A stretch of 64,000 bases of DNA from an uncultured Actinomycetota bacterium (GCA_964595565.1 CAZQQX010000006.1:2817-66816); one strand, 5' to 3'; counted from the first letter of the stretch, positions 41,864 to 63,699 are shown. The notes: generated from the sequence alone by a model not told the origin. A program made the numbers and translations.

Positions 41864-41874
41864 AAAAATACCCG

Positions 41875-43717: not shown

Positions 43718-43772
43718 AATTTTAAGTATTTATTCTTATTAAACCCGCTTTTAGAAAAATCACCAGTTAAAA

Positions 43773-46094: not shown

Positions 46095-46179
46095 TATTTC
46101 TCCTCTGCCGCTTTAAAAATTATCCAAAAGCCTTTTTACGTTAAAAACTCCAGGTTATTTCTTTATTTCAAGATTGCAA

Positions 46180-47226: not shown

Positions 47227-47302
47227 AACGAAAAAATTAATAACAGAAATATTTTGAATACTTGCATCTTTTTAAATATAGCATCCGTGCTTGCTTAAAT
47301 AT

Positions 47303-48877
47303 TCAGTGAAATATTCTCCTTTTAGCAACTTTAAAATAACCATATATTTTATAAATCAGATTCTTGCTGACGATTCCTTCAAGCTCGGATATTCTCCTGT
47401 CCCTTTCTTCTATCATTTGCTTCTGCCGGAGAACTATCTCATCAATATTCCTCAGGGCTTCTTCTCTGTTTAGAAATAATTTCCTTTCCTTCCCTTTATC
47501 CGGGGAAAATACAGGGTTTCTAACCCATTCTCTCAATCTTAAGGTAGTCCTAGTGAAATTAAAATTTTTCAATGCATAAATTTTTCCCGCAGCTGCAGTT
47601 TTTTCCACCTCACTGCGATGTGCTGCCATGTAAATTAATTTATCGCTTAATTCATTATAATCATAAGGTTTAAATGTATAACCAATTTCTTCTTTTTCTA
47701 TAATATCTGTCAATTCACACACATTTGAAGACAGCACGCACAGACCGGCTCTGAACCAATCCATAATACGGTTTTTACTGCCCAGCCTGACTTCATAAAT
47801 ATCTTTATCAATGTTTATACCGGCATCAGCTTCAAGGTAGTAATTCGGGACATCTTCTCCGGGTACCCATCCTTTCATTATAAATCTATCTTTATAAGAG
47901 CTTTCATTTATCATGGAAAGAAAATGAGGATAAGTTTTCAGGTCCTGTTCGGGAATCTCGCCTCCAGTTGATACAAATTTAATATCAGGATTTCTTTTCA
48001 TGGCAATTATCAGTCCTTTAAACAGGGTATCAACATCTGTCCAGGTGTTATATCCACCGGTCCAGAGAACCACGAAATCCCCTTCTTTTATGCCATATTT
48101 TCCCCTGATTACTTTTCTGGTATGTTTATACCCCGTTTCAGGGATACCACATGGAATCACATCTGTAAAATCATAACCGGCGGTATAGCGGTTAAGCCTG
48201 CCCGCGGCTCCCAGCTCTCCTATTAAAGCATACTTCTGTCTTGAAGATACACAGGAAAAACCATCCGCCGCGGATATAATATTATACTCACTGTTCCAGT
48301 AATGGAAAAGACACTCATCACTGCCGTCCATACAGGCGCGCGCCTGTGCTTCGGCCATTACATGGCCAAACAAATCAGCCCGAAACGGTATATCTTTATT
48401 AGAATAACTGATTAGTTTGGACAGAATATATGAAGGATAAAAAGTACATCCAATAGCACAGTCAGGTTCGAATTCATTAAATATCCGGGACATAATTTCA
48501 ACATTCTCAAAATCCTCTTTTCTCAATATGTTGTACTCAAAGCTATATTCAGGACTGCCCTTTATCCCACTATCAACACTGACAGAATTACCGGCATACG
48601 CTTTCCTGTCCCCCATGCCTCCGGAGTTGCTGCTTTTAAAATAACCGGAATTCTTTTTATTTACCGGGCCACCTTCACTATAAACAAAATTTTTCTTATG
48701 CTCTGACTTGTAACCATCAGGATATGCTGAAGGAACAGCATAATTACATACACAAATTTTATGGCCCTCCTCTAACAGTGGCAGCAAAAACTGCCATGTT
48801 CTTATACCGGTTCCATATACCTTCCTGTCATTTTCAAATGGAAGGGGGCTCATGCCTGCTATAAATATTCTGCTCAT
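47303..48877 (-). CDS. GT-B (GT4-like) glycosyltransferase with C-terminal coiled-coil tail
   Basis: Two Rossmann-like halves and a heptad-rich C-terminus; weaker signature than the other GT4 genes. Confidence 0.55.
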   Translation of the reverse strand: MSRIFIAGMSPLPFENDRKVYGTGIRTWQFLLPLLEEGHKICVCNYAVPSAYPDGYKSEHKKNFVYSEGGPVNKKNSGYFKSSNSGGMGDRKAYAGNSVSVDSGIKGSPEYSFEYNILRKEDFENVEIMSRIFNEFEPDCAIGCTFYPSYILSKLISYSNKDIPFRADLFGHVMAEAQARACMDGSDECLFHYWNSEYNIISAADGFSCVSSRQKYALIGELGAAGRLNRYTAGYDFTDVIPCGIPETGYKHTRKVIRGKYGIKEGDFVVLWTGGYNTWTDVDTLFKGLIIAMKRNPDIKFVSTGGEIPEQDLKTYPHFLSMINESSYKDRFIMKGWVPGEDVPNYYLEADAGINIDKDIYEVRLGSKNRIMDWFRAGLCVLSSNVCELTDIIEKEEIGYTFKPYDYNELSDKLIYMAAHRSEVEKTAAAGKIYALKNFNFTRTTLRLREWVRNPVFSPDKGKERKLFLNREEALRNIDEIVLRQKQMIEERDRRISELEGIVSKNLIYKIYGYFKVAKRRIFH

Positions 48878-49060: not shown

Positions 49061-51070
49061 ATGAGATTTATAATAATAATACTTCTAATTATTTTTTTAT
49101 CAATAAGCACCCTTTTAAGCATCGCCGTAATCAGTACAACAAAAGACGCCGAAAGCCGGGAAACCACTGCAGAAGGGCCGCTATCAGCAAAACCAAAAGA
49201 TAAAAATAAATTACCTGTCTCAAGGGTAGAAACAATAAATGATATACAAAAATTTTTTATTACTAATCGCGAATACATAAGTAAAGATATCAGTGACACC
49301 CCGGCCGGGGATACTGCTGATGGCCCTGAAACTCCGGATGATAAGGATGACAGTTCTTTAGATTCTGCAAACCAGGATGCAGAAGTAGCTGATAATAAAC
49401 AAAACGAAGATAGAGAAAATACGGATGAAGAAGAAACTACGGAAGAAGAGGAAGAAAACAGAGAAGAGATAAAAGCCGGTACCATAAAATTTTTTCTGGA
49501 TGGAGATATGGAAAACGGCATATACCTCGGGGAAACAACTTCAAACCTTGAATCTGCGGAAGCATTACAGCTGTACGGTGAGGATTTTATAAATACAGGT
49601 TTTAAATTTAACATTAAAAATGACAGTAATCTTAATCTTGAAGCCGGCTCTAACCACTATATTTATATTTACTTTTACACCCGGCAGTCAGAATGGGGCT
49701 ACACAAGACAACAGGTAAGTTTATCCGGAGAAGAAAAATGTGAGAAAAAAATTACCATATTTGTAGAAAAACCGGAAGATAAGATTATAACCTCCAGCCT
49801 AAAGATAATTAAAGGATGGGCTGTTGACCTTAGAAACAAAGAAAACCCCGGAATATCAAACATTGAAATCTACCTTGATGGACCGGAGAGTTATGGAAAA
49901 TTTATCGGGAACGCTGAATATGGAACCCCTAGAGAGGACGTTGCCGGCTATCTTGAAAATTCAAACTACTTAAATAGCGGTTATACATTTGAAAATCTGA
50001 TTGACCTTGAGCCCGGTTCCACCCACACTATATTCATTTATGCCTTTAGCTCCGTGGACAATTCGTTTAATTATGAAACAAGAGATATTTACTTATCCGG
50101 GATAAGAGAAGAAAAAGCAATAATTAATGCCAGGATTGACACACAAAAGTTCAATGATGAGAACATTATTGAAATAACCGGACTGGCAATTGATAAAAAT
50201 GTCCTTGAACAGTACCTTGAAGAAAAACGAAAGGCCGTGGAAGAGTCTTCAACAGATACCGGCCGGTACAATACCAAAAAAATAATATTTAATTCCAATA
50301 GAGATGGTAATGAAAATATATACAGTATAAATATTGACGGTACAGGACTCACCCGCCTGACCGGCAGCACTGGCAGCGACCTGTATCCGGAAGTATCGCC
50401 TGATGGAGAAAAAATTGCCTATACTGCTGATATAGGCGGGGTCTGGCAGATTATGGTTATGGACTGGAATGGTGATAATAAAAAGCAAATTACCACGGGC
50501 AACCATAGATGTGCCTATCCTTCCTGGTCTTATGACGGAAAATATATATATTTTGAGATATATAGTGATGGAGACTGGGAAATATATAGAATTAAAAGCG
50601 ACGGAACAGAGCAAAAAAGGCTTACCTTTAACCGCGACTCCCATGACTGGCACCCAACCGGGCATCCTTCTGAATATATGGTTATCTACGAATCAGGAAC
50701 TACCGGACATGAAAATATTTATGTAATGAATCACGACGGCTCCGGAAAAAGAAAAATATGTACTGATGGGCCAAGAAGAAGGGTCCCGGATGTATCACCG
50801 GACGGAAGTAAAATAACTTATATGAGATATTCTGATAGATACGCTGATATCTGGATTATGGATTATACCGGCCAGAATGAAACCAGGTTAAACAGCAACC
50901 CTGAAGAGGACGGCCACCCATCTTTTTCACCTGATGGGAAATATATAATTTATGAAGAAAGAAAAGGCTCCCGCGAAGATTTAATTTTAATAGATCTTGT
51001 CACTGGAGAAAAAACCAATCTGACTAATTCTTCATATATTGATAAAGATGGCAGTTTCCTTTACCGATAA
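49061..51070 (+). CDS. signal-anchored protein: acidic linker, two copies of an approximately 100-aa unassigned domain, and a C-terminal PD40/TolB-like beta-propeller
   Basis: N-terminal hydrophobic anchor, a D/E-rich segment, two internal repeats (IKFFLDGDMENGIYLGE... / IEIYLDGPESYGKFIGNAEYG...) and TolB-type PD40 repeats (NSNRDGNENIYSINIDG...SPDGEKIAYT... WSYDGKYIYFE). Confidence 0.7.
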   Translation: MRFIIIILLIIFLSISTLLSIAVISTTKDAESRETTAEGPLSAKPKDKNKLPVSRVETINDIQKFFITNREYISKDISDTPAGDTADGPETPDDKDDSSLDSANQDAEVADNKQNEDRENTDEEETTEEEEENREEIKAGTIKFFLDGDMENGIYLGETTSNLESAEALQLYGEDFINTGFKFNIKNDSNLNLEAGSNHYIYIYFYTRQSEWGYTRQQVSLSGEEKCEKKITIFVEKPEDKIITSSLKIIKGWAVDLRNKENPGISNIEIYLDGPESYGKFIGNAEYGTPREDVAGYLENSNYLNSGYTFENLIDLEPGSTHTIFIYAFSSVDNSFNYETRDIYLSGIREEKAIINARIDTQKFNDENIIEITGLAIDKNVLEQYLEEKRKAVEESSTDTGRYNTKKIIFNSNRDGNENIYSINIDGTGLTRLTGSTGSDLYPEVSPDGEKIAYTADIGGVWQIMVMDWNGDNKKQITTGNHRCAYPSWSYDGKYIYFEIYSDGDWEIYRIKSDGTEQKRLTFNRDSHDWHPTGHPSEYMVIYESGTTGHENIYVMNHDGSGKRKICTDGPRRRVPDVSPDGSKITYMRYSDRYADIWIMDYTGQNETRLNSNPEEDGHPSFSPDGKYIIYEERKGSREDLILIDLVTGEKTNLTNSSYIDKDGSFLYR

Positions 51071-51119
51071 TAACTACCTTTTGCAGTTTAATATATTTTC
51101 CGGGTCCACTGTACTGCAT

Positions 51120-51581
51120 TTAATCGGTAACCTGATGCCTGAACCTTTTGCTTGAAGCTCTGAGTTTTAATCTAACCGATGTACCCATGGAAATACCGAG
51201 CCACAGGCCCCAGACAGTTTCCCTGGAAAAGAAATAAAAAGCAAGCTCTGAAATAGTAAGACTGGAGTTAAACAGTTCAGTTACTACTGTATTTACCAGA
51301 CCGGTTTTATATAGCAATAGCGCAATAGCAGGTATACAGCCTGAAATCAAAAATGTTTTTATGTCAAAATAGTTCCTATTTACTATCGGCTTCATACTGA
51401 GAATTATCAGTAATCCAATCATAAACCCAAGAATAAGAACAATAATGAGCCTCAAAAAACTTAAAAAACCGGCCGGCAGGCTGTAAGCTGCCAGTGCGGC
51501 GGTAATATTATCAAAATATGCAAAAGCGGTATAATAGAGAATTATATTTATAAAACTGAATATGATAAGAAAAATTCTCAT
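51120..51581 (-). CDS. 4-TM membrane protein, unassigned family (paralogue of 53533..54063)
   Basis: 153 aa, four hydrophobic helices, convergent with the PD40 gene; about 45% identical to 53533..54063. Confidence 0.5.
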   Translation of the reverse strand: MRIFLIIFSFINIILYYTAFAYFDNITAALAAYSLPAGFLSFLRLIIVLILGFMIGLLIILSMKPIVNRNYFDIKTFLISGCIPAIALLLYKTGLVNTVVTELFNSSLTISELAFYFFSRETVWGLWLGISMGTSVRLKLRASSKRFRHQVTD

Positions 51582-51812
51582 TTTTTTATCCGCTGTCTTC
51601 TTTCTATTTATATCATTTTTTTTAAAATGACTGATAAGCAGATGTTAACTTAAAAAAATACTAATTTCAATTAATATTGTATTCTGTTATACTTTAAAAC
51701 TTGAAAAAATATTAAATGCATTTATAGTTTATAATTATTATCAGTTTATTTAACTTAATCTTAATGTCCAAATCCTATAATCTGTAATATAGATAAAAAG
51801 GTATAAAAAAAA

Positions 51813-53579
51813 ATGAGAACAGTAACTACAATTATTATAGTTTTGCTCCTGGTAGCTGTTATATTCCTCGGGTTTATAGTCTTAAAATATTCCGGAACAG
51901 GAACTCCTGCCGAAGAAGAAACTGCCGGGCCTGAAACAGGCGAACCCATAGTTGAAGAAGAGGAGCCAGAGCCTGTAGTTGAAGAAGAACCGGTTCAGGA
52001 AGTGAAAGAGGATGAAATCGCAGTAATCGAAATATATCTTGATGGTGACAGGAATAATGGCATACTGCTGGGAGAAGCAGAATATGGTATGGCCTCCCCG
52101 GAAGCTTATAATATCTATGGCGGGGAATTCTCAGAAAGCGGTTTTCTCCTGGCCGAAAAAAACAGAGCATACACCTTTGAGCCCGGCTCTACCCACTACC
52201 TTTATATCTATGTTCTTATACCGGAATATGGATGGAATTATACCCGCCAGAAGGTTAGCATCCCGGGCAGCGAAGAGACAGACGAAAATATCAGGTTATC
52301 TATAGATGACCCTTCCCACAATGAAACAATAAAAGAAGCTGATAAATCAAATATTAAAATTTCAGGCTGGTCAGTTGATGTCAGCCAGCAAAGTGACCCC
52401 GGTATTGACCGTATTGAAATATATCTAAACGGGCCTAAAGAATTCGGGAAGCCTGCCGGTGAAGTGGACTATGGAATTGAAAGACAGGATGTAGCCGGCG
52501 CTCTTGGAAACGCCGGTTATACCAGTTCCGGATATTTATTAAATTTTGACGGTAGTAATCTTGAAGCCGACAGCGAAAACACCCTGTATATCTACTCTTT
52601 CTCTACTTCAGGAACATATAACCTGGGCTTAAGAAATATTGTAATAGAAGGTGAAAAGAAGGAATCAATAGCCCTAATTTCAGCACAGGCTAACCTGAGC
52701 AATGAATCCATAGAGATAAGCGGCTGGGCAATAAATAAAGACCACATTACCGGAGGCAGACCGAGAGACCCCGATACAGAATACTCAACCAGAAAGATAG
52801 TATTTGCTTCCAGCAAAAATGGAAACGAGGATATATTCAGCATGAACATAGATGGTACCGAACTTACGCAGCTGACAGATTATTCCGGAAAAGACAATTA
52901 CCCTGCTGTTTCACCCGATGGTAAAAAAATTGCCTACACTTCAGATATCAATGGTGTCTGGCAGATAGTAGTTATGAACTGGGATGGAACCGAAAAGGAG
53001 CAGATTACCTACAATCCGTGGAGAAGCGGGTATCCTGCCTGGTCCTTTGATGGAAGATATATTTTCTTTGAAGCATACATAGAGGGCGACTATGAAATAT
53101 ACAGGATGAACAGTGATGGAAGCAATATGAAGAGAATTACATTCAATCCAAATATCCCGGACTGGCATCCTTACGGTCATCCTTTCCAGTACAGAGTCAT
53201 TTATGAATCAGGGACGTCAAGGAACGAAAAAATATATATGATGGATTATGACGGTACTAATATTAAACAGCTATCAGACGCAGACATGCGGCAGAGGGTC
53301 CCTGCAATTTCTATTGATGGAGAAACTATCGTTTTTAGTGACAATGAATCCGTTTATACTATAAATATCAATGGAGAAAATTTACAAAAAATCAGCGGGA
53401 ACCTCTCAAACAGCAGACACCCTGACATATCTCCGGATAATAAATATATAACCTTCGAGGGCAATGTTGACGGCCAGCTTGAAATATTTATAGTCAATGC
53501 CGATGGTTCAAACCTAAAGAGACTTACCAGTATTACTGGAAGTGATTATGACCCTGTTTTTCTGTATCAGGCTCCCTAG
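51813..53579 (+). CDS. paralogue of 49061..51070: signal-anchored repeat-domain / PD40 beta-propeller protein
   Basis: Same architecture: TM anchor, an E/P-rich linker, two IEIYL(D/N)G repeats and PD40 repeats; about 60% identical to gene 49061 in the propeller region. Confidence 0.7.
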   Translation: MRTVTTIIIVLLLVAVIFLGFIVLKYSGTGTPAEEETAGPETGEPIVEEEEPEPVVEEEPVQEVKEDEIAVIEIYLDGDRNNGILLGEAEYGMASPEAYNIYGGEFSESGFLLAEKNRAYTFEPGSTHYLYIYVLIPEYGWNYTRQKVSIPGSEETDENIRLSIDDPSHNETIKEADKSNIKISGWSVDVSQQSDPGIDRIEIYLNGPKEFGKPAGEVDYGIERQDVAGALGNAGYTSSGYLLNFDGSNLEADSENTLYIYSFSTSGTYNLGLRNIVIEGEKKESIALISAQANLSNESIEISGWAINKDHITGGRPRDPDTEYSTRKIVFASSKNGNEDIFSMNIDGTELTQLTDYSGKDNYPAVSPDGKKIAYTSDINGVWQIVVMNWDGTEKEQITYNPWRSGYPAWSFDGRYIFFEAYIEGDYEIYRMNSDGSNMKRITFNPNIPDWHPYGHPFQYRVIYESGTSRNEKIYMMDYDGTNIKQLSDADMRQRVPAISIDGETIVFSDNESVYTININGENLQKISGNLSNSRHPDISPDNKYITFEGNVDGQLEIFIVNADGSNLKRLTSITGSDYDPVFLYQAP

Positions 53580-54063
53580 CAAGTGATGGAAGCTCTACTT
53601 TTTCTTTTCCTTCAATTGAAACATGTTTGTATTTTCTTCCGGGAAAACTGAATCGGATTGATGAACCTATAGAAAAGCCCAGCCATATGGACCATATAGT
53701 CTGCCTTGAGAAAAGATAAAATACAAGCTCACTCAATCGTTCACTGGAGTTAAAAAATTTATTAATAATAAAGCTGGTAATTGTACCTTCAGATAGCACC
53801 ATACAGATAAAAGGGAAAAAACCGACTATCACCAGGTTCTTAAAACTAAAAAGGCTTCTTTTTATTTTTAATTTTAATACAAGCATCACTATTACACCTA
53901 TACAGAACCCGACAATTAACAGGACCGCCAGCTTAATATAATTTGCTGCTATTGCTGATATATCTAATCCTTCAAGAATCTCCAGAATCTTATCAAAATA
54001 AGAATAAATAAAAACATAAAAAACAGCATTAATAAAAGAAAAAACTATTAAAAAAACTCTCAA
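53533..54063 (-). CDS. 4-TM membrane protein, paralogue of 51120..51581
   Basis: MRVFLIVFSFINAVFY... / ...FNSSERLSELVFYLFSRQTIWSIWLGFSIGSSIRF align with the other copy; the 3' end overlaps the convergent PD40 gene by about 47 nt. Confidence 0.5.
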   Translation of the reverse strand: MRVFLIVFSFINAVFYVFIYSYFDKILEILEGLDISAIAANYIKLAVLLIVGFCIGVIVMLVLKLKIKRSLFSFKNLVIVGFFPFICMVLSEGTITSFIINKFFNSSERLSELVFYLFSRQTIWSIWLGFSIGSSIRFSFPGRKYKHVSIEGKEKVELPSLAREPDTEKQGHNHFQ

Positions 54064-54173: not shown

Positions 54174-56012
54174 TCAAAGTCTCTGTCCGATGCTGCCGAG
54201 ATACTGGGAAACATAACTATAGACTGTATGCGCCACAACCGAAGCACCTGCTGAACTGTAGTGCATGCCATCATTTAGATAGCCACCGGGATTCTGAGAA
54301 AGCGGAGTTGTAACATCTATAACCACTGCACCGTGCTTTGCAGCAATCTGCCTTATTGTGTCATTATATTTAGCATAATTTTCTTTTTCCGGCCAGTTCA
54401 GTGGCCCGATAAGGTTAACAAATACCCTTGCGCCAAGACTTTTTGCTTTTACAATCAGGCCCTCCATGCTAACCGAGAATCCGGAATAACGGGGACCCAC
54501 ATCATTGGTTCCATAGGCAATTATAACTATATCCGGATTATGCACAGCAACGGTGCTTTCAAATCTCGCATTCCCCTCACGGGTTAACTCGCCACTCTTC
54601 GCACTGGCAATGGTATTATACTCTGCATAGGGATAATTAGCCTCCAGAAGCTGGTCAAATGTCTGCACCCAGTTTGATTTAGCTATCAGTGAATCGCCCA
54701 TGGCTACAATAGTCACACTGGCATTCCCCCTTACATTCAGGCTTTTAGGCGGCAGCCCAACAACCGCATTGCTGCTTTCAATTTTAAAATGAGTGGTTAT
54801 TGTACCGCCTGAATTAGCCAGATTTTCATTCACCATTATCCTAAAAGTAATCTCTTTTTCCTCTTCTACGCCCAGGTTCTCAAGGTCCCAGATAAGCCCC
54901 CTTATATCATCGCTCCACCTTATACCCTCCGCGGTACCGGACCGGCTGACGTAAGTAGCCCCTTCCGGCGTGGGGCAGATAACACTATAATTTTCTTCTT
55001 TCTTCATACCGGTGTTTCTGACAATAATTTTTACACTTATAGTCTCTCCCGGGTATAGATTGCCTCCATTTGTATCGTATATATAGTTTTCCGATGTAGT
55101 TAAATCAGAAAACAGGCTCAGTTTTTCTTCCACTTTTTTTTCTATTACAATTGACCCGTATTTTAAAATACTTTCACCGGTTATAACTTCTTCGCCCATT
55201 AAGTCTTCTTTCACCCTGACCTTAAAGGAAAGAACCCTTTTTGTATTCACTTTAAGGTTGTCAATTTCCCATAATACGCTGTTATTGTTGTATTCCCCCT
55301 GGCCGGTAATAGAATCTTTGATTATGTCCGTGTATTCTGATATAGCACTTTTTATTTCAACACTGGATGCACTCATATCGCCATCATTTTTCACTGTTAA
55401 ATCATACCTCAGAACATCACCCAGCATGATGACCCCGCCATTCTCATCTACAGCTTTTACACTGAAGCTACTCAAATCAGGGCTACTTTCAACTTCGGCG
55501 GTCAGAACGGGGCTTATGGTATTATTAAACGTCTCTATCCCTATAAGGTAATTAAAATTCACCTTATCCAACATGATTACAGTACCATCATCCAGCGGGC
55601 TAATTACTTCCACCACAAAACACAGAGTACCTCTCTCGTTCTTCTTAACCTCTCCAATGTTAAAACCCAGTTTTTTGCCGTCCCCGGCAATGTTTAAAAC
55701 GTCACTGCGGTCCGATGACACAAAGGAAGTATGTTCCGGTAAACCAACTTCTATAACCAGTTTGCTTACATTCCTGTTACCCGTATTTTTGTAATTTACT
55801 GCATAAGTAATCCTGTCCCCCGGTTTTATATTATCCCCTGTATCACTGTATACATAATTAAAATTTTCATCATCAAAATTGGGTTCTGTCAGATAGAATT
55901 TAAAATAATAAATTAAAAAAGCAGCTGCAGCTATGCCCAGAGAACCGGCCACAATAAAAATCCACTTTTTATTACTTTTTATATAATCCAGTATTTTTTT
56001 AATTATCTTCAT
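54174..56012 (-). CDS. signal-anchored surface protein with DUF11-type repeat domains and a C-terminal SGNH/GDSL hydrolase domain
   Basis: GDRITYAVNYKNTGNRNVSKLVIEVGLPEHTSFVSS DUF11-like repeats. The C-terminus has VTIVAMGDSL (GDS block I) ... IVIIAYGTNDV (block III). The ATG at 56012 is preferred over the upstream TTG at 56084. Confidence 0.65.
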   Translation of the reverse strand: MKIIKKILDYIKSNKKWIFIVAGSLGIAAAAFLIYYFKFYLTEPNFDDENFNYVYSDTGDNIKPGDRITYAVNYKNTGNRNVSKLVIEVGLPEHTSFVSSDRSDVLNIAGDGKKLGFNIGEVKKNERGTLCFVVEVISPLDDGTVIMLDKVNFNYLIGIETFNNTISPVLTAEVESSPDLSSFSVKAVDENGGVIMLGDVLRYDLTVKNDGDMSASSVEIKSAISEYTDIIKDSITGQGEYNNNSVLWEIDNLKVNTKRVLSFKVRVKEDLMGEEVITGESILKYGSIVIEKKVEEKLSLFSDLTTSENYIYDTNGGNLYPGETISVKIIVRNTGMKKEENYSVICPTPEGATYVSRSGTAEGIRWSDDIRGLIWDLENLGVEEEKEITFRIMVNENLANSGGTITTHFKIESSNAVVGLPPKSLNVRGNASVTIVAMGDSLIAKSNWVQTFDQLLEANYPYAEYNTIASAKSGELTREGNARFESTVAVHNPDIVIIAYGTNDVGPRYSGFSVSMEGLIVKAKSLGARVFVNLIGPLNWPEKENYAKYNDTIRQIAAKHGAVVIDVTTPLSQNPGGYLNDGMHYSSAGASVVAHTVYSYVSQYLGSIGQRL

Positions 56013-56115
56013 TATTAATACACAATTATTTTTACCACCATTAAATTCGTTAAAAACAATTCCAATATTATAGCAAAAAGACAACCTCTAGATAAAGTAT
56101 TATTTGAGCGGGCTT

Positions 56116-57717
56116 TTACCTTATCTCTATTTCAATATCATCACAATTAATATAATTATTTTTGTAAGTCGCCCTGAATTTTACAACAGACCGTCCGGAA
56201 TCGGTGCCCCTGACTTTAACCATTAAATTAATCTGACCATTACTATCTATAATATATGAATCGCTTACCCACATATATACACCCTCACTTAAACCCGGAT
56301 ATTGTTTTACGTATCCTTCAGGGCTGACTCCGGTCAGCTCAACGTTATCCGGAAGCTCAAGTTCCAGTGAAGTGATCCCGGCCCCATCTTCACCGGTATT
56401 GCCTATAATAAATTCTATGATAAATTCTTCTCCCTCTTTTTTTATCTTATCACCAGCTTCATAGCTAATTTCAATACTTCTATCCAGATTTAAATAATTA
56501 ACATACTGTTCGGGAGAAATCAGGCTGTTAAACTCCACTCTCTTCATATTAAAGAGGTCAATTGTCTCTGTATCCTCTGCCCCGCCGGCATGCCTTAACG
56601 CACCTCTGTAGCCGGCTTCCACAAATAAAGGCGTTTTATCAGGATTATAATTTCCCTTTGGTAGCGCAACAAATAAAACTTCATTTCCCAGATGGGATTC
56701 AATATCCTCTTTTGATCGGGTAAGTTCATATAAAATTGTCTCATCGTAAGCAATTCCCAGCCTGACATGATTTACTGTATGGGATTGAAACTCGCAACCA
56801 TATTCATACATTTCTTTAATCTCGGGCCATATAAGTATCGGGCGTATGGGCCTGTCCGCACTGGCTTCTTTCTCAAAATATGCATTTGTTTTTCTATCAG
56901 CTTCAGTATCCCCTATTGCGCCGGTTACCAGAAATACAGTCATCCTGTACCCGTACTTTTTAAGAATGGGGAACCCATTGGTATAAACATCCTGAAACCC
57001 GTCATCGGATGTTATAATTACCGGTTTTTCAGGCAGCGACCTGCCGAAATCTATGTAATCTAAAAGCTCCTTCAACGTAATAGTCTCGTAACCATACTCT
57101 TTTAATACGCCGCACAGTTTGTCAAAGTGGCCGGTATAAAGCTCTATCGGCTCTTCAATATGATCCTCTATGGCATGCATGCCTATTATGGGAATAAAAA
57201 CTCCATCAAATTGTCTTTCACCGTAAACCAGCATTTTACAATCAGGACCTATAAAAGAGTCTACTTCATCTGAAGATATCTCCAGCCCGACCTCAGCCCG
57301 GGTGTCCTCATTTATATCATCTATTAAAGTCAGACCGGTTACAAAATTACTTTCTTCCCCCGCTCCAAGAACATCTATATTCCATGATGTCCGCCCGATG
57401 CCTGGTTCAAACAGGTCGTGAGTTATAAGATTAACTTCCACATTTTTTGCTTCCGCACCGCCGCTATTTACCACACTTATATTTACCTTTATATCTTCAC
57501 CTCCATATGTATTTCCGCCATTTGCATCAATTAGTTCTATATAAGAACCGGAAAATGATGGCAATGGCCCCTCTCCGGACGAACTGGCGTCACTATCACC
57601 GCTGCTTATAACCTGTTCAAACCCAGAACAGCCGGTAAAAATTACCGGAAAAATTATTATAAAAGCAAATAAAACTTTTATATTATTCTTTTTAATGAGT
57701 TTTCTCACTGCAAACAT
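56116..57717 (-). CDS. lipoprotein with a NodB-type polysaccharide deacetylase domain and a C-terminal DUF11-like beta-sandwich domain
   Basis: Lipobox VIFTGCSG. PIITSDDGFQDVYTNGFPILKKYGYRMTVFLV is the NodB motif 1/2 region. The C-terminal approximately 105 aa are shared with the gene at 57823. Confidence 0.75.
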   Translation of the reverse strand: MFAVRKLIKKNNIKVLFAFIIIFPVIFTGCSGFEQVISSGDSDASSSGEGPLPSFSGSYIELIDANGGNTYGGEDIKVNISVVNSGGAEAKNVEVNLITHDLFEPGIGRTSWNIDVLGAGEESNFVTGLTLIDDINEDTRAEVGLEISSDEVDSFIGPDCKMLVYGERQFDGVFIPIIGMHAIEDHIEEPIELYTGHFDKLCGVLKEYGYETITLKELLDYIDFGRSLPEKPVIITSDDGFQDVYTNGFPILKKYGYRMTVFLVTGAIGDTEADRKTNAYFEKEASADRPIRPILIWPEIKEMYEYGCEFQSHTVNHVRLGIAYDETILYELTRSKEDIESHLGNEVLFVALPKGNYNPDKTPLFVEAGYRGALRHAGGAEDTETIDLFNMKRVEFNSLISPEQYVNYLNLDRSIEISYEAGDKIKKEGEEFIIEFIIGNTGEDGAGITSLELELPDNVELTGVSPEGYVKQYPGLSEGVYMWVSDSYIIDSNGQINLMVKVRGTDSGRSVVKFRATYKNNYINCDDIEIEIR

Positions 57718-57822
57718 TACATGCTTCCATCTTTTTACTTTATCTATTTACCCGCCTTATTTTTTATCAATATAGCAGAATAAATCTAATAAACTAATAA
57801 ATCCAGGTTAATTCTTTTTAAT

Positions 57823-59715
57823 TTAATCTTTTATCTCTATTCCTAAACTGTCACAGTCAACGTAAAACCCGCCGGTTGTCAGTCTAAATTTTATAAATGA
57901 CTCACCGGGCGCCATTCCTTTTAGTTTTACAATCAAGTTTATCTCTTCCCCGCCCTCTATGACATATGAATCACTTACCCACATATATATACCCTGGCTC
58001 AGGCCGGGGTCCTGGCTGATATACCCTCCGGGGGAAGTTTCTATGAATTCAATATTTTCAGGAAGCTCAAGCTCAAATGATGTAATCTTAATTCTTTCTT
58101 TATTCTTATTCCTGACAATATATTCAATGGTGAATTCCTCCCCGAACCTTCTGGTATAACTATCGCTAAAGTAGCTAATTTCAGGAATAGACGCTGCAGG
58201 TTCAGTAACCCTGAACAGTCTTAACCATTCGTCATACCTGCTCCATAAATAACTTTTCCCCACCTGTTCGGCATTAAATAATTTTTTTATTACCTCTTCA
58301 TTGCCCACATAATATACTGTAATACCATCTTCAAGAGCTTCCATCATATTGCTTGCCGTATATTCCGGCACCTTATGAGATATATATTTTATGTTTTTGT
58401 CTCCATACTCATATTTGTCCACAAACATCCCGATATTTGTTGATTTAGCCAGGGCATACACCCTGGAATTACTTTCCATATTCTTAAACGCTTCATCCCA
58501 GAATTTATAAACGTAAGAAACCTCCGAATGGTCAAGCGAAGGATAATTTTCTATTATCAGGCCGGCCGGTATAAAAAGAAAAAACAATAATATGATAGTG
58601 ACCAGAAAATATTTTAAGAATTTATCAATCCCCAGAACCTTTCTTCCCATTAATGACTTAATAAACAGCAGAATCACCCCATCCAGTATAAACAGCAACC
58701 CGAAAGCAATATAAAAAGAAAATACAATCATTGAATACAGTAAATAATTTCTGAGTGCATGCCCTGCATATAATGGAGGAAAAACAAAGTTTACAATCAC
58801 CAGCAAAAATGTGCACAGGGCAAACTTTACATTTTTTTTGACCAGAATGATAAATCCTATAAGCGCTATGATAAGAAGCAGGATACCATAACTTTCATAA
58901 AACATACCAAGGTAATCTTTAATTACCTTTAATATTAATGAAATGCTCTTGTCCCCAAAACTTCCTCCATGGACTTCCCCTGTTACACCCCTTCCGGTTA
59001 TATAATAGAAAAATTTTAAAGGGCCGGTTACTTCCCCGTAACCCTGGAGCGACCTTATGGGAAGATACAGATATGATAAAAGAGGCAGAATAAAATATAA
59101 TATGCTGATTATAATTGCCTTTGCGCTTTTAAAAATCCCCGGATTCACAATAATAACATATAAAATAATGACCGGGACCAGGAAAAAAACAAGAGGGTGG
59201 TTGGTTAAACTTAACCCCAGGCAGAAAGCAAAAAAATAAAGATACTTTCTGGTTTTATTTTCATTATAGGTAATAGCCGAAAAAAACAATAAAGTCATAA
59301 AAAAAGTCTGTAATGTATCAAATTCCAGCCTGTTTGCCACTTCCCAGAAAGGCACGGCAAAAGCAAATATCATTGAACTTATAAAGCTTACGAACACATT
59401 TTTTACCAGTTTATTAATTGATAGGAATAAAAATAAAATGGTAAGTGCGCCGAAGATTGCTGAAAAAAGATTGAGCCTGTAAGCTATATCTCCAACCGGC
59501 AGTAAGGTAAAAAGCTTTTCCAGCATGGAAAAAACCGGATATCCGGTAGGAACCATAAGACTCATTTCGGTAACCTGAAGAGCGTACCATGCAGTATCCC
59601 CGCCTATTAGTTTACGTTCCAGAGTCATAAGATAAATAACCAGGGGAACAGCAAAAGAAAGAATTGATAATATAACTGCCTGTTTTCCTGTTATGAATGC
59701 TTTAACCTTCTCCAA
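57823..59715 (-). CDS. polytopic GT-C-fold membrane glycosyltransferase-like protein (DUF2723/TMEM260- and ArnT/PMT-like) with a C-terminal DUF11-like extracytoplasmic domain
   Basis: More than 10 predicted TM helices. An early loop GGDTAWYALQV...VPTGYPVF resembles the DUF2723 HPPGYPL region. The soluble C-terminal domain is about 55% identical to the C-terminus of the deacetylase. Confidence 0.55.
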   Translation of the reverse strand: MEKVKAFITGKQAVILSILSFAVPLVIYLMTLERKLIGGDTAWYALQVTEMSLMVPTGYPVFSMLEKLFTLLPVGDIAYRLNLFSAIFGALTILFLFLSINKLVKNVFVSFISSMIFAFAVPFWEVANRLEFDTLQTFFMTLLFFSAITYNENKTRKYLYFFAFCLGLSLTNHPLVFFLVPVIILYVIIVNPGIFKSAKAIIISILYFILPLLSYLYLPIRSLQGYGEVTGPLKFFYYITGRGVTGEVHGGSFGDKSISLILKVIKDYLGMFYESYGILLLIIALIGFIILVKKNVKFALCTFLLVIVNFVFPPLYAGHALRNYLLYSMIVFSFYIAFGLLFILDGVILLFIKSLMGRKVLGIDKFLKYFLVTIILLFFLFIPAGLIIENYPSLDHSEVSYVYKFWDEAFKNMESNSRVYALAKSTNIGMFVDKYEYGDKNIKYISHKVPEYTASNMMEALEDGITVYYVGNEEVIKKLFNAEQVGKSYLWSRYDEWLRLFRVTEPAASIPEISYFSDSYTRRFGEEFTIEYIVRNKNKERIKITSFELELPENIEFIETSPGGYISQDPGLSQGIYMWVSDSYVIEGGEEINLIVKLKGMAPGESFIKFRLTTGGFYVDCDSLGIEIKD

Positions 59716-59762: not shown

Positions 59763-60101
59763 TTACAGATTAAATATTATAACTCCGGCAATAACCAGGA
59801 TATTGCCCGCAATTCTTAACCTGTCAATATCTTCTCTGAGAATACACCATGAAAATAACATTATAAAAAAGTAGCTCAGCGCCGTAAAGGAATAAAAATT
59901 TGAAAAATCAATCACTCTCATAGTGATTATGGAAAGAACCGGAACAAGCAAAAATAAAAATATACTTATTAAAAGATATTTATTCTTAAAATTGCAGGTA
60001 AAGGGCTTCCTGAAATCTACCTTTTTTGCTCCTATCTTGAGTATAACCTGGGCCAGGGCAACCAGAAATTGAGTTACAACCGCCAAAAAAATATAAAGCA
60101 T
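59763..60101 (-). CDS. small 4-TM EamA/SMR-type protein (ArnE/ArnF-like flippase subunit)
   Basis: 112 aa half-size DMT protein immediately downstream of a second one: the paired arrangement typical of ArnE/ArnF. Confidence 0.6.
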   Translation of the reverse strand: MLYIFLAVVTQFLVALAQVILKIGAKKVDFRKPFTCNFKNKYLLISIFLFLLVPVLSIITMRVIDFSNFYSFTALSYFFIMLFSWCILREDIDRLRIAGNILVIAGVIIFNL

Positions 60102-60104: not shown

Positions 60105-60527
60105 TTATACCCCTTCCAGCTTCTTACTGGACATAGTTATAATAAAAACTCCTGCTACTATAACAGCCGAACCGATAATTTTTTTTAAAGTAACGGGCTC
60201 GCCAAATAAAATTTTGCCCAGGAACAAAGAAAAAAAGTAATTTAAGCTCAGGAGCGGATATATAAAAGAGAGCTTAAACTTCCTGTGCAGGATAAACCAT
60301 AACACAAATTTAAGGCCGTAAGTCAGAGACATCACAGACAGCCAGAAGGCAAAAACCCTTGAGAGTTCAAGATTCATGCCTATATATTTTCCCGCAATTA
60401 TACTCAGTAGATTAATGCTGATGGCAAGAATAACTATAAGAATATAAAAAATTTTTTTATCGGTATCCCTAAATTTCATTTTTGATTTTTCCCCTGCGAA
60501 AAGGGCCAAACTAATATTTTGAAACAC
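60105..60527 (-). CDS. small 4-TM EamA/SMR-type protein (ArnE/ArnF-like flippase subunit)
   Basis: 140 aa, four TM helices; 3 nt from the partner gene. Confidence 0.6.
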   Translation of the reverse strand: MFQNISLALFAGEKSKMKFRDTDKKIFYILIVILAISINLLSIIAGKYIGMNLELSRVFAFWLSVMSLTYGLKFVLWFILHRKFKLSFIYPLLSLNYFFSLFLGKILFGEPVTLKKIIGSAVIVAGVFIITMSSKKLEGV

Positions 60528-60693: not shown

Positions 60694-61650
60694 ATGGCTA
60701 AAAAACTGCTGGTTGCGATTCCCGCATATAACGAGGAAGAAAAAATAGGCGAAGTAATACTGAACATTCCCAAAAAAATTAAGGGGATATCAAAAATCCA
60801 TGTCCTTGTTATTGATGACGGTTCCACAGATAAAACGGCAAAAATTGCTGCCGGCTCGGGTGCCGAAGTAATAAAGAACCACTATAATATGGGGTACGGA
60901 GTGGCATTCGGCAGAGCTCTTCAGTACGCTGTTGAAAATAACTTTGATTTAATGGTCAGTATTGACGGAGATTCACAATTCAATCCAGAAGACATACCCC
61001 TGCTCATTTACCCTATCATTAAAAACGAAGCTGATATGGTGACCGCCTCCCGTTTTATTGACAAAAAATACTATCCCGTTATGCCCCTGTCTAAATTCTG
61101 GGGAAATAAAATGATGTCTATTTTAATCAGCAAACTAATCGGGAAAAAATTTTATGATGTATCATGCGGCTTCAGGGCATATTCACAAAAAACCCTTCTT
61201 TCACTGAACCTGCATGGGAAATTTACTTTTTCCCAGGAAACATTTATTGACTTATCTTTTAAAGGAATCAAAATTATGGAGGTCCCCGTGAAGGTAAAAT
61301 ATTTTCCTTCACGTGTCTCAAAAATATCTTCCAACCTTTTCACATACGGTATAAATTCACTCAAAATAATTCTTGAAACTTACAGGGACCACAGGCCATT
61401 TACCTTTTTTTCATATATTGCCCTGTTCTTTTTTATAGTAAGCATCTTCTTCGGTTCTATTTTGCTGTACACTTATATTTCAATTGGCTCATTTCACCCG
61501 AATGTCTGGTCGGGATTTGTAGGAGGAACTTTCCTGTTCATTTCGGTAACTTTTTTTATTATAGGCATATCGGCAGATATAATTAAAAGAATCAGAGTTA
61601 ATCAGGAAGAAATTCTATACCTTTTAAAGAAAAATTCTCAAAGAAAATAA
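60694..61650 (+). CDS. polyprenyl-phosphate glycosyltransferase (GT2; ArnC/GtrB/DPM1-like) with C-terminal TM helices
   Basis: LLVAIPAYNEEEKIGEVI...IHVLVIDDGSTDKTAKIA...SIDGDSQ GT-A motifs followed by two C-terminal TM helices, the GtrB/ArnC architecture; transcribed divergently from the flippase pair. Confidence 0.8.
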   Translation: MAKKLLVAIPAYNEEEKIGEVILNIPKKIKGISKIHVLVIDDGSTDKTAKIAAGSGAEVIKNHYNMGYGVAFGRALQYAVENNFDLMVSIDGDSQFNPEDIPLLIYPIIKNEADMVTASRFIDKKYYPVMPLSKFWGNKMMSILISKLIGKKFYDVSCGFRAYSQKTLLSLNLHGKFTFSQETFIDLSFKGIKIMEVPVKVKYFPSRVSKISSNLFTYGINSLKIILETYRDHRPFTFFSYIALFFFIVSIFFGSILLYTYISIGSFHPNVWSGFVGGTFLFISVTFFIIGISADIIKRIRVNQEEILYLLKKNSQRK

Positions 61651-61915: not shown

Positions 61916-62932
61916 TTAAGCATCCCTGTCGTCTTCTTCCTTAAATTTTCTTTCAAAATAAGGCCTTACTATATACACAATCCCACCCACCAGTCCGATC
62001 AGAATTAGCATAAATAATATTAATAGAGAGCAAAGGGCAGCTTTCTCATTTACCACACCCATGGCAACCATAATAAAAACCAGTGAATTTTCCCTCAGGC
62101 CTATACCGCCGACAGAGATGGGAATCATAGCTATAGTTGACACCACCGGAACAATGAAAATAAATGCAGCAAGGCTGAGCTCAATTCCAAGAGCCCGGGC
62201 AGCCAGATACCAGTTCAATATAACAGCAAACTGGAGAAGGAAGCTATAGACTAAAACTTTTAAAAGCACTATTTTATGGTTTTTAAAACTCATAAGCGTG
62301 TTATAAGCGCTGGATAACTTTTCCTTTATTTTATTTATAAATCCGAACCTTTTTAAGAATTTGCCTATGCCAAAAATTGACGGTTTAATAATTATTAAAG
62401 CTATAATTACAACAATTACAAAAAAGATAACTATAGGAATTATCACAGGCTGATTCCCAATAGCGGTAAAACCTAAAAATAAGGCTGCTACAGCATAGAC
62501 AGACGCGCTTACCACACCGGAAAATCTTTCTACCAGAATTACAGAAGCCGATGAGCTTAAGGGAATTTTTGCCTTCTTTGAAGCATCAATAGTTCTGAAC
62601 ACATCGCCCCCTATACTGGTGGGCAAAAAATTATTAAAAAATAAACCTATAAGCACCGTAACACTTAAACTGGCTGTGCTTAGTTTCACATTCTGGGTAT
62701 CTAAAAGTGCTTTCCACCTTAATGCTGTTATCCAGGTGCCAAAAATATGAGTGGATAACGAAAGAAGAAGCAGAATTTTACTGGATGATTTTAAAATCTC
62801 AACTATACTGGAAAAATTTTTAAACTGTGTCTTAACCAGATAAAAAATCAGTAAAATACTGATTACAATTCTTAATGTCAGAAGTATTGATTTTCTATTC
62901 TTCTTATAGAAAGAAATAAACTTGTTCTTCAT
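61916..62932 (-). CDS. UPF0104 / lysylphosphatidylglycerol-synthase-TM-region-like flippase-like membrane protein
   Basis: Eight predicted TM helices; TALRWKALLDTQNV...FFNNFLPTSIGGDVFR matches the UPF0104 (MprF TM-domain-like) signature. Confidence 0.6.
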   Translation of the reverse strand: MKNKFISFYKKNRKSILLTLRIVISILLIFYLVKTQFKNFSSIVEILKSSSKILLLLSLSTHIFGTWITALRWKALLDTQNVKLSTASLSVTVLIGLFFNNFLPTSIGGDVFRTIDASKKAKIPLSSSASVILVERFSGVVSASVYAVAALFLGFTAIGNQPVIIPIVIFFVIVVIIALIIIKPSIFGIGKFLKRFGFINKIKEKLSSAYNTLMSFKNHKIVLLKVLVYSFLLQFAVILNWYLAARALGIELSLAAFIFIVPVVSTIAMIPISVGGIGLRENSLVFIMVAMGVVNEKAALCSLLILFMLILIGLVGGIVYIVRPYFERKFKEEDDRDA

Positions 62933-62955: not shown

Positions 62956-63699
62956 TTATTTTCTGGACTTTGTAACCTTCGCTGGCACCCCCGAGGCAAT
63001 ACAGTAAGGCGGGATATCTTTTGAGACTACAGCTCCTGCTCCGATTATAGTATCATTACCTATAGAAACCCCATCAAAAACTATAGCCCCTGCTCCTATC
63101 CAGCAATTCTCATCTACTTTTATACCATAGAATGTTTTTTTCTGCTCCGATACCGGGATATCCACCCTGGAATAGTCATGCCCTCCTCCAGTGATATAAA
63201 CATAGGCTGCAATTAAGGTATTTTCCCCTATAGCCACCCTGCTTCCCGAAAATATTTCACTATTAAACCCTATAACCACATTATCTCCGATGCTTATATC
63301 TCCATTTTTACAGCTCAGTATACTATTTCTACCGATAAATATATTTTTGCCCAGATTAATACCATTATTATCCAGCCCCTTGGCATCCAGAACGCAGTAG
63401 TCGTCTATCACAACATTATCATCAATAGTTATTTTATGGGGGTGCCTTACAGTTATTGATTTTCCAAAACTTACTCCCTTTCCCACCTTTTTAAATAACG
63501 CCGGATAAAATAAGTTCCTAAAAAAGATGCCGATGGCTCCGGGCATATCCTGGAAAAGAATGGTTATTATTTCGTATTTTAATAAGTTAAAAAAGCCTTT
63601 CTTTCCCACAAACAGGTCCACATACTTGGCAATTTTTGACTTTTTTCTGGAAAAAAGTTCTTTTTGTATCCTGTCTTCATATCTTTCTATTACAATCAA
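62956..63699 (-). CDS. hexapeptide-repeat (LbH) acetyltransferase, WcaF/NodL/LacA-like sugar O-acetyltransferase
   Basis: C-terminal IGDNVVIGFNSEIFSGSRVAIGENTLIAAYVYI...IGAGAIV hexapeptide repeats. Confidence 0.7.
   Translation of the reverse strand: MIVIERYEDRIQKELFSRKKSKIAKYVDLFVGKKGFFNLLKYEIITILFQDMPGAIGIFFRNLFYPALFKKVGKGVSFGKSITVRHPHKITIDDNVVIDDYCVLDAKGLDNNGINLGKNIFIGRNSILSCKNGDISIGDNVVIGFNSEIFSGSRVAIGENTLIAAYVYITGGGHDYSRVDIPVSEQKKTFYGIKVDENCWIGAGAIVFDGVSIGNDTIIGAGAVVSKDIPPYCIASGVPAKVTKSRK

Follow-up and report, generated by a model that had tools for sequence, protein, structure and literature searches.

Organization of the gene cluster and its two tailed enzymes

The window, that is, the whole 64-kb stretch of DNA analysed, contains a cluster of envelope-related genes in which two neighbours on the same strand, encoding a polysaccharide deacetylase and a GT-C fold glycosyltransferase (GT-C below), end in homologous C-terminal tails. 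The features are as follows:

54174..56084, minus strand: membrane-anchored protein with three DUF11 repeats and an SGNH/GDSL esterase domain (Pfam DUF11 in three stretches, Lipase_GDSL_2; present in 27 loci)
56116..57717, minus strand: predicted lipoprotein CE4/NodB polysaccharide deacetylase (PF01522, 83.5 bits, cut-off 23.1)
56119..56463, minus strand: predicted beta-sandwich tail module of the deacetylase (residues 419-533; homologous region from ~416)
57823..59715, minus strand: TMEM260-like/DUF2723 GT-C fold glycosyltransferase (PF11028, 90.3 bits, cut-off 24.2; PMT_2, 30.5 bits)
57826..58173, minus strand: predicted beta-sandwich tail module of the GT-C (residues 515-630; homologous region from ~512)
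59763..60101, minus strand: ArnF-like small EamA-type half-transporter of 112 aa, candidate flippase subunit (Pfam EamA; NCBIfam ArnF E=1e-4, below cut-off)
60105..60527, minus strand: ArnE-like small EamA-type half-transporter of 140 aa, candidate flippase subunit (Pfam EamA; NCBIfam ArnE E=1.3e-10, below cut-off)
60694..61650, plus strand: divergent GT2 polyprenyl-phosphate sugar synthase, AglJ/DPM1/PpgS/ArnC-like (Glycos_transf_2, PF00535, 81 bits)
61916..62932, minus strand: LPG_synthase_TM/flippase-like membrane protein, a conserved neighbour (PF03706, TIGR00374; 19 loci)
62956..63699, minus strand: hexapeptide-repeat acyltransferase, WcaF/WbbJ-like, a conserved neighbour (Pfam Hexapep, NCBIfam WcaF family; 17 loci)

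Both tailed open reading frames exist as called in the first-pass annotation, and the tail sequences quoted there are exact. The DUF11-SGNH gene lies directly downstream of the deacetylase, and on the other side the order GT2 (divergent), ArnE, ArnF, GT-C is kept in 21-25 loci among those long enough, with the ArnF-like gene adjoining the GT-C in 21, the ArnE-like gene in its place in 21 and the GT2 in 25. The GT2 has two C-terminal TM helices, and its NCBIfam matches to AglJ (E=3.9e-36), PpgS (1.9e-20) and ArnC (2e-15) all fall below the equivalog cut-offs. With an anchored GT2, small multi-TM flippase candidates and a GT-C bearing an acidic loop residue clustered together, the locus looks, from its gene content, like a three-component extracytoplasmic glycosylation system accompanied by modifying enzymes. 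The GT-C and deacetylase genes are probably co-transcribed, the operon structure being read from spacing and synteny only; a promoter and terminator scan returned counts no higher than those in shuffled sequence. A GDP-mannose pathway is also encoded in the window.

The deacetylase consists of a signal peptide with lipobox Cys30, a Ser-rich linker, a CARDB-like domain (residues 67-128; Pfam CARDB, 23.5 bits), the NodB domain (227-372) and the tail. Sandwiches of the DUF11/CARDB type thus occur on other envelope enzymes of the cluster as well, namely at this N-terminus and on the SGNH enzyme. PF01522 scores above its gathering threshold and the metal-binding and catalytic motifs (DD; HxxxH) are intact; the lipobox Cys and the TSDDG and SHTxNH motifs are kept in all 26 of 26 orthologues. 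Rather than lacking an export signal, as a cytoplasmic deacetylase would, the protein carries an N-terminal signal peptide and lipobox, and is predicted to be an extracytoplasmic lipoprotein. Its nearest NCBIfam models, below cut-off, are PgaB/IcaB and not ArnD.

In the GT-C, PF11028 and PF13231 both score above gathering. A full-length AF2 model (pLDDT 89.3, pTM 0.80), computed from an orthologue alignment built from database matches, displays a TM core of about 10-11 helices extending to residue ~394, an alpha/beta domain at ~400-506 and a beta-sandwich at 512-629. The PF11028 match, the ~11-TM core and an alpha/beta domain that follows the last TM helix outside the membrane place the enzyme in the TMEM260-like group; the C-terminal TPR domain of human TMEM260 was not found, the C-terminus being all-beta and without a TPR Pfam match. 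Across 47 sequences, G38-G39-D40 is invariant in the first outer loop. The best Foldseek matches to the model are ArnT, PglB/STT3, ALG9/12, Emb, DPY19 and PMT, with E ~1e-7 for ArnT, PglB and STT3 and ArnT as the best structural match. Because a K/R-rich loop precedes the last TM helix, the C-terminus is placed outside the membrane. The tails of both enzymes are accordingly predicted to lie outside, each module forming the membrane-distal end of its enzyme's extracytoplasmic region. To our knowledge, bacterial TMEM260-like (DUF2723) GT-C enzymes have no assigned function.

Homology, fold and age of the C-terminal module

The relationship between the two tails is unambiguous. BLASTP of the full proteins with composition-based statistics yields a single significant alignment (E=3e-35, 45% identity over 154 aa), and the Smith-Waterman score of the tails is 305, compared with 29.8 +/- 5.4 in 2000 shuffles (z=51), which rules out a low-complexity artefact. 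The pairwise alignment that the first-pass annotation had suggested as a check thus came out significant. The likeness it reported stands, while its figure of about 55% identity is slightly high, since 55 of 105 positions (52%) are identical. An upstream extension of the homology by ~40 aa in the BLAST alignment is weak and finds no support in profile-profile comparison of the two orthologue families, which aligns confidently only over the last ~118 residues (deacetylase ~416-533, GT-C ~512-630), giving a module of ~115-118 residues in both enzymes. Outside this region the proteins are unrelated, as had been stated, and belong to distinct Pfam families (Polysacc_deac_1, 83.5 bits, versus TMEM260-like/PMT_2, 90.3 bits). 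By tblastn, the 64-kb window holds two copies of the module only.

When 1.84 billion representatives were searched exhaustively with HMMER, and 33 genome loci alongside, the module turned up solely at the very C-terminus of deacetylase and GT-C orthologues, no more than 2 residues from the protein end; the survey of its co-occurrence with NodB and GT-C enzymes elsewhere, proposed earlier, thus bears out an exclusive association. The hosts are almost all uncultured Actinomycetota, two MAGs being named Ca. Humimicrobiaceae/Hydromicrobium. An apparent extreme rarity of the tail (one match to a 115-aa query in a word-indexed search) was recognized as a sensitivity artefact from the HMMER search and from a full-length GT-C search, which returned 365 matches. 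Three MAGs (L015, L023 and L032) show one carrier only, which could be explained by incomplete genomes. A supposedly natural tail-less GT-C in another MAG (L011) was discarded as a ~0.7 kb deletion or frameshift in a low-coverage assembly where the deacetylase N-terminus is lost too.

According to the predicted structure, the module is an Ig-like beta-sandwich, in agreement with the fold expected beforehand; its most conserved motif is modelled with low confidence in the isolated domain. Sequence comparison suggests a distant, tentative kinship with the DUF11/CARDB-like domains with which it had first been compared. The tail region of both full proteins has no Pfam match at E<=0.1, and 24 tails searched against Pfam gave best E values of 0.023 (DUF11) and 0.071 (CARDB), both far under gathering. 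A tail profile does match three DUF11-repeat proteins (P0039, P0040 and P0049) at E 4e-8 to 5e-4 in the 1.84e9-protein library, and hhalign places it in register with three DUF11 repeats, weakly (E 0.002-0.016, probability 3-16%). DUF11 (PF01345) and CARDB (PF07705) typically form tandem repeats, whereas the tail is single-copy and C-terminal and carries its own invariant GxYMWVSDSY motif. PDB sequence searches with a single tail and with a 24-sequence profile retrieved nothing significant. No CAZy CBM family was matched by sequence or among the top structural matches, which distinguishes the tail from CBMs as shared accessory modules. The structural neighbours at the top of the list include cohesins, the protein-protein assembly modules of glycoside hydrolases, and the tails give faint Pfam Cohesin matches; assignment to the cohesins would call for a Pfam match and a dockerin-bearing partner, and was not reached. 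Compared with the non-cellulosomal cohesins of Clostridium perfringens glycoside hydrolases (PDB 2vo8, 2w1n), the tail shares <=14% sequence identity, there is no dockerin-like partner here, and the carriers include a polytopic membrane GT-C. The module constitutes a new lineage-restricted domain family, sharply marked by the signature ELELP...PG.S.G.YMWVSD.Y.

Both tail types share an identical 37-column consensus without type-specific conserved columns, MWV being invariant within the GxYMWVSDSY motif of both and one run having every residue conserved, which indicates one shared constraint. The tail is also more conserved than other accessory domains. An invariant Cys forming an intermolecular disulfide was considered and dropped, since the Cys of the NCDD turn is kept in only 62% of tails. 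At the DNA level, the two tails are 62% identical, with 43% identity at third codon positions; 67% of 4-fold sites differ (73% expected at random), and NG86 dS is not computable, the synonymous sites being saturated. In the core clade, comprising >20 species-level genomes with catalytic domains down to ~58% identical to those of the window, tails cluster by enzyme type and not by genome, and the identity between deacetylase and GT-C tails is 0.57 within the same genome and 0.535 across genomes. Because of this clustering by enzyme type, the duplication of the tail is regarded as old, predating the radiation of the core clade on the sequence evidence. Of the two origins offered in the first-pass annotation, recent domain shuffling therefore fails, given the low DNA and third-position identity, the near-random 4-fold sites and the grouping by enzyme type, whereas strong co-selection fits the common consensus and the restriction of the module to these two enzymes.

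Possible roles of the shared module

With a probability of roughly 45%, the favoured reading is that the tail acts as a targeting or co-localization module through which both enzymes bind the same envelope acceptor, a glycan or glycoprotein. The module, probably a very divergent relative of DUF11/CARDB-type domains, was joined to the GT-C and to the lipoprotein CE4 deacetylase before the core clade of uncultured Actinomycetota diversified, and has since then been held under one constraint in both. The steps that follow, with their sugar, their acceptor, their order and the binding by the tails, are inferred. In the cytoplasm, the GT2 would attach a sugar to polyprenyl phosphate; the ArnE/ArnF-like pair would flip the lipid-linked sugar across the membrane, and the GT-C would pass it on to an acceptor of the envelope on the outer side, after which the deacetylase and the DUF11-SGNH esterase would modify the product; binding of a common acceptor by the tails would direct transfer and de-N-acetylation to the same substrate. 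The earlier descriptions of the tail as carbohydrate-binding-like, and as physically tying both enzymes to one target, are plausible. What counts against acceptor binding with de-N-acetylation is that TMEM260-family enzymes are mannosyltransferases and a GDP-mannose pathway is present, so that a transferred mannose would offer no acetyl group to remove. The lack of a CBM match, the low modelling confidence of the most conserved motif and the MAGs with a single carrier also weigh against it.

The identical conservation of the two tails fits homotypic pairing equally well as binding to a common target. Under such pairing, which is a possible if somewhat unlikely alternative, the tails would bind each other through a self-complementary surface to form a physical complex, in which the lipoprotein deacetylase stays attached to the GT-C and removes the acetyl group there and then, either from the transferred sugar or from the lipid-linked donor after flipping. 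A consensus without type-specific positions is what a symmetric interface requires; the presence of exactly two carriers per genome, the adjacency and probable co-transcription of their genes in >20 genomes, and the cohesin signals described above point the same way. A broader proposal, more speculative still, regards the tail as the coupling device of an undescribed extracytoplasmic transfer-and-deacetylate machine in which tail-tail pairing or joint acceptor docking might keep the CE4 deacetylase on the GT-C, HexNAc brought in on polyprenyl phosphate thereby becoming a free aminosugar on an actinobacterial envelope polymer.

It is improbable that the tail is merely a passive structural cap or spacer drawn from a common DUF11-like pool, lacking a specific ligand and conserved only by folding constraints. 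The generic nature of the Ig-like fold, the DUF11/CARDB-type sandwiches on the deacetylase N-terminus and SGNH enzyme and the weak in-register profile matches to DUF11 repeats would suit such a role; however, the module is terminal and far from the membrane, a position that does not suit a stalk, occurs on two enzymes alone and not across the many surface proteins, exceeds other accessory domains in conservation, and retains the same 37 columns in both paralogues despite saturated synonymous divergence. Its position at the extreme C-terminus, its size of ~100 aa and its beta-sandwich fold on otherwise unrelated carriers recall a C-terminal sorting or secretion signal (a T9SS CTD-like or cell-wall anchoring domain), an idea that is very hard to sustain and was rejected because the GT-C, with its TM core, cannot be secreted cargo; the limit of two carriers per genome, the actinobacterial lineage and the absence of matches between the tails and known sorting-domain families also speak against it. 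Least credible of all is recent shuffling or gene conversion between the adjacent, same-strand genes, a concerted evolution that might account for tails 52% identical on otherwise unrelated proteins, and that is refuted by the tree, by the saturation of synonymous sites and by a same-genome identity barely above the cross-genome value.

These observations place a bacterial TMEM260-like GT-C in a complete, conserved three-component cluster and link it to a deacetylase by a dedicated module, and they lead to a testable pathway hypothesis in which lipid-linked HexNAc is transferred and then, or in one coupled process, de-N-acetylated outside the membrane. The tail signature could enter domain databases. 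Since the organisms are uncultured, the immediate benefit lies only in annotation and in new hypotheses. If the tail is a docking device, it would illustrate a way of keeping enzymes that modify the envelope in sequence on a single substrate with no need of a scaffold protein, and would hint at where to seek the deacetylase of related actinobacterial aminosugar pathways. Should the coupling-machine proposal be true, the cluster would provide a worked example of the 'missing' deacetylation step in actinobacterial aminosugar decoration, and would for the first time assign a function to a bacterial DUF2723/TMEM260-like enzyme.

Comparison with known glycosylation systems

Human TMEM260 is a protein O-mannosyltransferase of the PF11028 family (10.64898/2026.03.17.711096; PMC10214176). 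Compared by description, it shares with the window GT-C an 11-TM GT-C core, a conserved Asp in the first luminal loop and an alpha/beta domain outside the membrane, and differs in ending in a TPR domain where the window enzyme has its beta-sandwich tail; the 50 best Foldseek matches of the GT-C model in the PDB copy searched did not include the TMEM260 structure.

Three-component extracytoplasmic glycosylation systems include GtrA/GtrB/Gtr*, CsbB/GtcA/YfhO and GacI/GacJ/GacL (PMC11127046). As in these Gtr-type systems, a membrane-anchored GT2 synthase, small flippase-type protein(s) and a GT-C are encoded together. The present cluster departs from them in that the flippase candidates are an ArnE/ArnF-like pair instead of GtrA, the GT-C belongs to the TMEM260-like/DUF2723 family, and two extracytoplasmic modifying enzymes, the CE4 deacetylase and the DUF11-SGNH esterase, form a constant part of the cluster. 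A dedicated C-terminal module on both the GT-C and the deacetylase sets it apart from Gtr- and Arn-type systems as described. We know of no dedicated shared C-terminal module in either type.

The Arn pathway (ArnC/ArnD/ArnE/ArnF/ArnT) has the same kinds of components, namely a GT2 synthase, a NodB-superfamily deacetylase, ArnE/F-type flippase subunits and a GT-C; the NCBIfam Arn matches of the cluster proteins are all under the curated cut-offs. Francisella FlmF/NaxD/FlmK and Bordetella LgmABC likewise handle aminosugars on a lipid carrier and include a deacetylase or deformylase. The Arn and Nax pathways deacylate the lipid-linked sugar at the cytoplasmic face before flipping, whereas the deacetylase described here is a predicted lipoprotein whose nearest models, PgaB/IcaB, are extracytoplasmic polymer deacetylases. 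Lipid A is classically considered absent from the host phylum, and the acceptor must therefore be a different one.

Modification of mycobacterial and corynebacterial arabinogalactan with GalN (PpgS, Rv3632, Rv3779) is likewise actinobacterial, with a GT2 that makes polyprenyl-P-GalNAc and a GT-C that transfers GalN outside the membrane; the likeness of the window GT2 to PpgS (E=1.9e-20) is at the level of a model match below the cut-off. In that pathway, the flippase and deacetylase have been described as 'as yet unidentified' (PMC9671496), whereas candidates for both are encoded in the cluster described here.

Homologous C-termini of a transferase and a deacetylase

Two adjacent minus-strand ORFs encode a TMEM260-like GT-C transferase and a lipoprotein CE4/NodB deacetylase, for which the first-pass annotation had proposed a common C-terminal domain, here called the tail.

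Carrier genes and tail modules (module bounds from profile-profile alignment)
57823-59715, minus strand: GT-C ORF, 630 aa; Pfam PF11028 TMEM260-like/PMT_2, 90.3 bits
57826-58173, minus strand: tail module of the GT-C
56116-57717, minus strand: deacetylase ORF, 533 aa; Pfam PF01522 CE4/NodB, 83.5 bits; N-terminal CARDB-like domain
56119-56463, minus strand: tail module of the deacetylase

A Pfam scan of both proteins returned no match at their C-termini. The pairwise alignment suggested as a check was significant, with BLASTP giving a single significant alignment (E=3e-35) and the Smith-Waterman score lying 51 standard deviations above shuffles; the tail homology is real and statistically secure. 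The shared tail thus stands, its identity, first put at about 55%, being measured as 52% (55/105) across the residues quoted in that annotation. The module bounds follow from a profile-profile comparison of the GT-C and deacetylase orthologue families, which is confident for the last ~118 residues only and excludes as genuine homology a weak upstream stretch of the BLAST alignment. No third tail copy was found by tblastn in the 64-kb window.

The deacetylase carries a lipoprotein signal peptide whose Cys is conserved in 26/26 sequences, its TSDDG and SHTxNH motifs are intact, and its nearest models, PgaB/IcaB, are exported. In the GT-C, G38-G39-D40 of the first outer loop is invariant, and the loop preceding the last TM helix is K/R-rich, so that the acidic 242-aa C-terminal region is predicted to lie outside. 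In the GT-C model, which matches the structures of ArnT, PglB/STT3, ALG9/12, Emb, DPY19 and PMT, the TM core is followed by an alpha/beta domain (400-506) and then by the beta-sandwich tail.

Distribution, age and constraint of the module

A scan of species-representative genomes yielded 33 module-bearing loci, almost all from uncultured Actinomycetota MAGs, including two named ones (Ca. Hydromicrobium and Ca. Humimicrobiaceae, class Ca. Humimicrobiia) and a relative of the window at 91-96% identity (L002). At every locus the only carriers are GT-C orthologues (~630-650 aa) or deacetylase orthologues (~525-560 aa), and the same two architectures recurred in every Pfam-scanned strong match with a recognisable N-terminal domain in an exhaustive search. 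Among the matches listed, 119/120 GT-C homologues have the tail, ending at most 2 residues from the C-terminus, the exception being a partial sequence. An apparent rarity of the tail, a single match in a word-indexed protein search with a 115-aa query, is an artefact of combining a word index with a short query: such searches badly under-sample short divergent domains, and the 630-aa query recovered >100 full-length carriers from the same database.

Two loci are irregular. L033 (CAYNXW010000173.1), labelled an uncultured Pirellulales (Planctomycetota) MAG, holds the full ArnE/ArnF/GT-C/deacetylase/SGNH core with the most divergent tails (34% identity within the pair), while all other loci whose record names a phylum are Actinomycetota; its label reflects lateral transfer or else a mistake in binning or labelling. 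In L011:7389-10354, from a low-coverage MAG, the GT-C ORF matches only up to residue ~520 and continues, with a change of frame, into a deacetylase ORF matching from residue ~111, the GT-C tail and deacetylase N-terminus (~0.7 kb) being absent; the pair is either pseudogenised or misassembled.

The window tails are 62% identical in DNA and 43% at third codon positions, and 67% of their four-fold sites differ against 73% expected at random, with NG86 dS not computable. A neighbour-joining tree built from 60 tails, poorly resolved for the deepest genomes (L025, L029, L031, L033), separates GT-C from deacetylase tails within the core clade (>20 species-level genomes, with catalytic domains as little as ~58% identical to those of the window), and the nearest cross-type relative of a tail is not its own-genome partner. 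These two patterns rule out gene conversion and indicate a single ancient duplication or domain transfer, with vertical inheritance since then. The recent domain shuffling initially suggested is incorrect, given near-random four-fold sites and grouping by enzyme type.

The alternative offered there, strong co-selection, proved right: ~37 columns reach 90% conservation or more over both tail types and none is type-specific. Invariant residues (S32, L35, P56, M64-W65-V66) lie inside the signatures ELELP and PG.S.G.YMWVSD.Y. Judged from conservation, both tails are under one common functional constraint, because their consensus is essentially identical, cross-type identity (0.535) equals that of deacetylase-tail orthologues (0.54), and orthologue conservation of the tail, below that of the catalytic cores (NodB 0.72, TM core 0.67), exceeds that of other accessory domains (CARDB 0.45, alpha/beta 0.55).

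The gene cluster and the rest of the window

Neighbours of the pair
Upstream of the pair, minus strand: two small EamA-type half-transporters; best NCBIfam models ArnE and ArnF, below equivalog cut-offs
Divergent: GT2 with two C-terminal TM helices; best models AglJ, Dol-P-hexose transferase, PpgS and ArnC, below equivalog cut-offs
Beyond the GT2: LPG_synthase_TM 'flippase-like' protein and hexapeptide acyltransferase
54174-56084, minus strand, directly downstream of the deacetylase: membrane-anchored SGNH protein, three DUF11 repeats and an SGNH esterase domain

This order is kept in >20 loci, and the GT2/ArnE/ArnF/GT-C/deacetylase/SGNH core is retained even in the most divergent (L029, L033). 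The close gene spacing, a good promoter-like site ahead of arnE and the lack of terminator-like sites between genes are compatible with an operon, but this evidence is weak, because promoter and terminator site counts are no higher than in shuffles. The CARDB-like domain of the deacetylase (residues ~60-160) resembles the DUF11 repeats of the SGNH protein (blastp E ~1e-6 in the L007 and L032 orthologues); beta-sandwich modules therefore join the three exported enzymes pairwise, GT-C to deacetylase via the tail and deacetylase to SGNH protein via CARDB/DUF11.

Other features of the window
9747-10099, minus strand: tmRNA gene, Rfam 216.5 bits, tag peptide ANDNELALAA
20189-29480, minus strand: phosphomannomutase, bifunctional PGI/PMI, GDP-mannose 4,6-dehydratase, two NTP-transferase/hexapeptide proteins, second epimerase/reductase
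38141-48877, minus strand: seven GT1/GT2 glycosyltransferase genes in one block, on the upstream side of the PD40 units
Within 49061-54063, plus strand: membrane-anchored PD40 beta-propeller proteins, 669 and 588 aa, ~42% identical
Within 49061-54063, opposite strand: small ~3-TM proteins, 153 and 176 aa, ~37% identical, no Pfam match

The tmRNA gene marks the window as bacterial. The 20189-29480 genes look like a GDP-mannose/6-deoxyhexose pathway, which could feed the window's glycosyltransferases and bear on the GT2/GT-C sugar. The glycosyltransferase block, whose GT1_524 and GT2_348 show conserved synteny in 10-12 loci, is probably an envelope-polysaccharide synthesis locus, and its product might be the acceptor. 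The region 49061-54063 consists of two tandem paralogous units, each a PD40 gene followed by a small ~3-TM gene, with ORF 53533-54063 overlapping a PD40 gene 3' end convergently by 47 nt; both units adjoin the glycosylation cluster in ~17 loci and could be its substrates or partners. Nearly every gene of 1-64000 lies on the minus strand, and GC skew takes strongly negative values (about -0.2 to -0.3) almost throughout, approaching zero only at plus-strand genes (6-10, 48-54 and 58-62 kb).

Proposed role and comparison with known systems

The analysis shows that the tails are homologous, of a known fold class, exclusive to these two enzymes, old and under a common constraint; it also shows the conserved gene order, a predicted placement outside the membrane and catalytic motifs that are intact. 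Beyond this, we infer that the cluster is a Gtr/Arn-type three-component glycosylation system (PMC11127046). The GT2 would attach a sugar to polyprenyl phosphate, the ArnE/F-like pair would flip the loaded lipid, the GT-C would move the sugar to an envelope acceptor, and the lipoprotein CE4 enzyme and SGNH esterase would then edit the product. A transferred HexNAc would explain the deacetylase, with the caveat that family precedent is mannose and that GDP-mannose genes lie in the window.

The tail may serve as a co-localisation module bringing transferase and deacetylase onto the same substrate, and it is plausible that it carries both to one target, most likely by binding the same acceptor (probability about 0.45). 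Pairing of the tails into a complex, a less probable route, fits their identical conservation just as acceptor binding does; ligand binding is slightly favoured by the terminal position far from the membrane and by the invariant strand of aromatic and polar residues. That the tail is purely structural is unlikely, since this fits poorly with its exclusivity and paralogue-wide conservation.

The cluster has the same parts list as Arn (ArnC/D/E/F/T) and as the NaxD/FlmK and LgmABC aminosugar pathways. In all three, deacylation precedes flipping, at the cytoplasmic face; the window deacetylase is predicted to be exported, so the cluster lacks this defining feature. Among actinobacterial pathways, the one for arabinogalactan GalN (PpgS, Rv3632, Rv3779) comes closest; its flippase and deacetylase are still unidentified (PMC9671496), whereas the cluster encodes candidates for both. 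Human TMEM260 joins its 11-TM core to a luminal Rossmann-like domain and, distally, a TPR domain (10.64898/2026.03.17.711096; PMC10214176), the position of the last being occupied by the beta-sandwich tail in the GT-C model. The tail is a new, lineage-restricted domain family. A non-catalytic sandwich common to enzymes of one substrate is a familiar principle, as in CBMs and cohesins; what is new is this module, its restriction to the GT-C/CE4 pair and its place in a three-component system.
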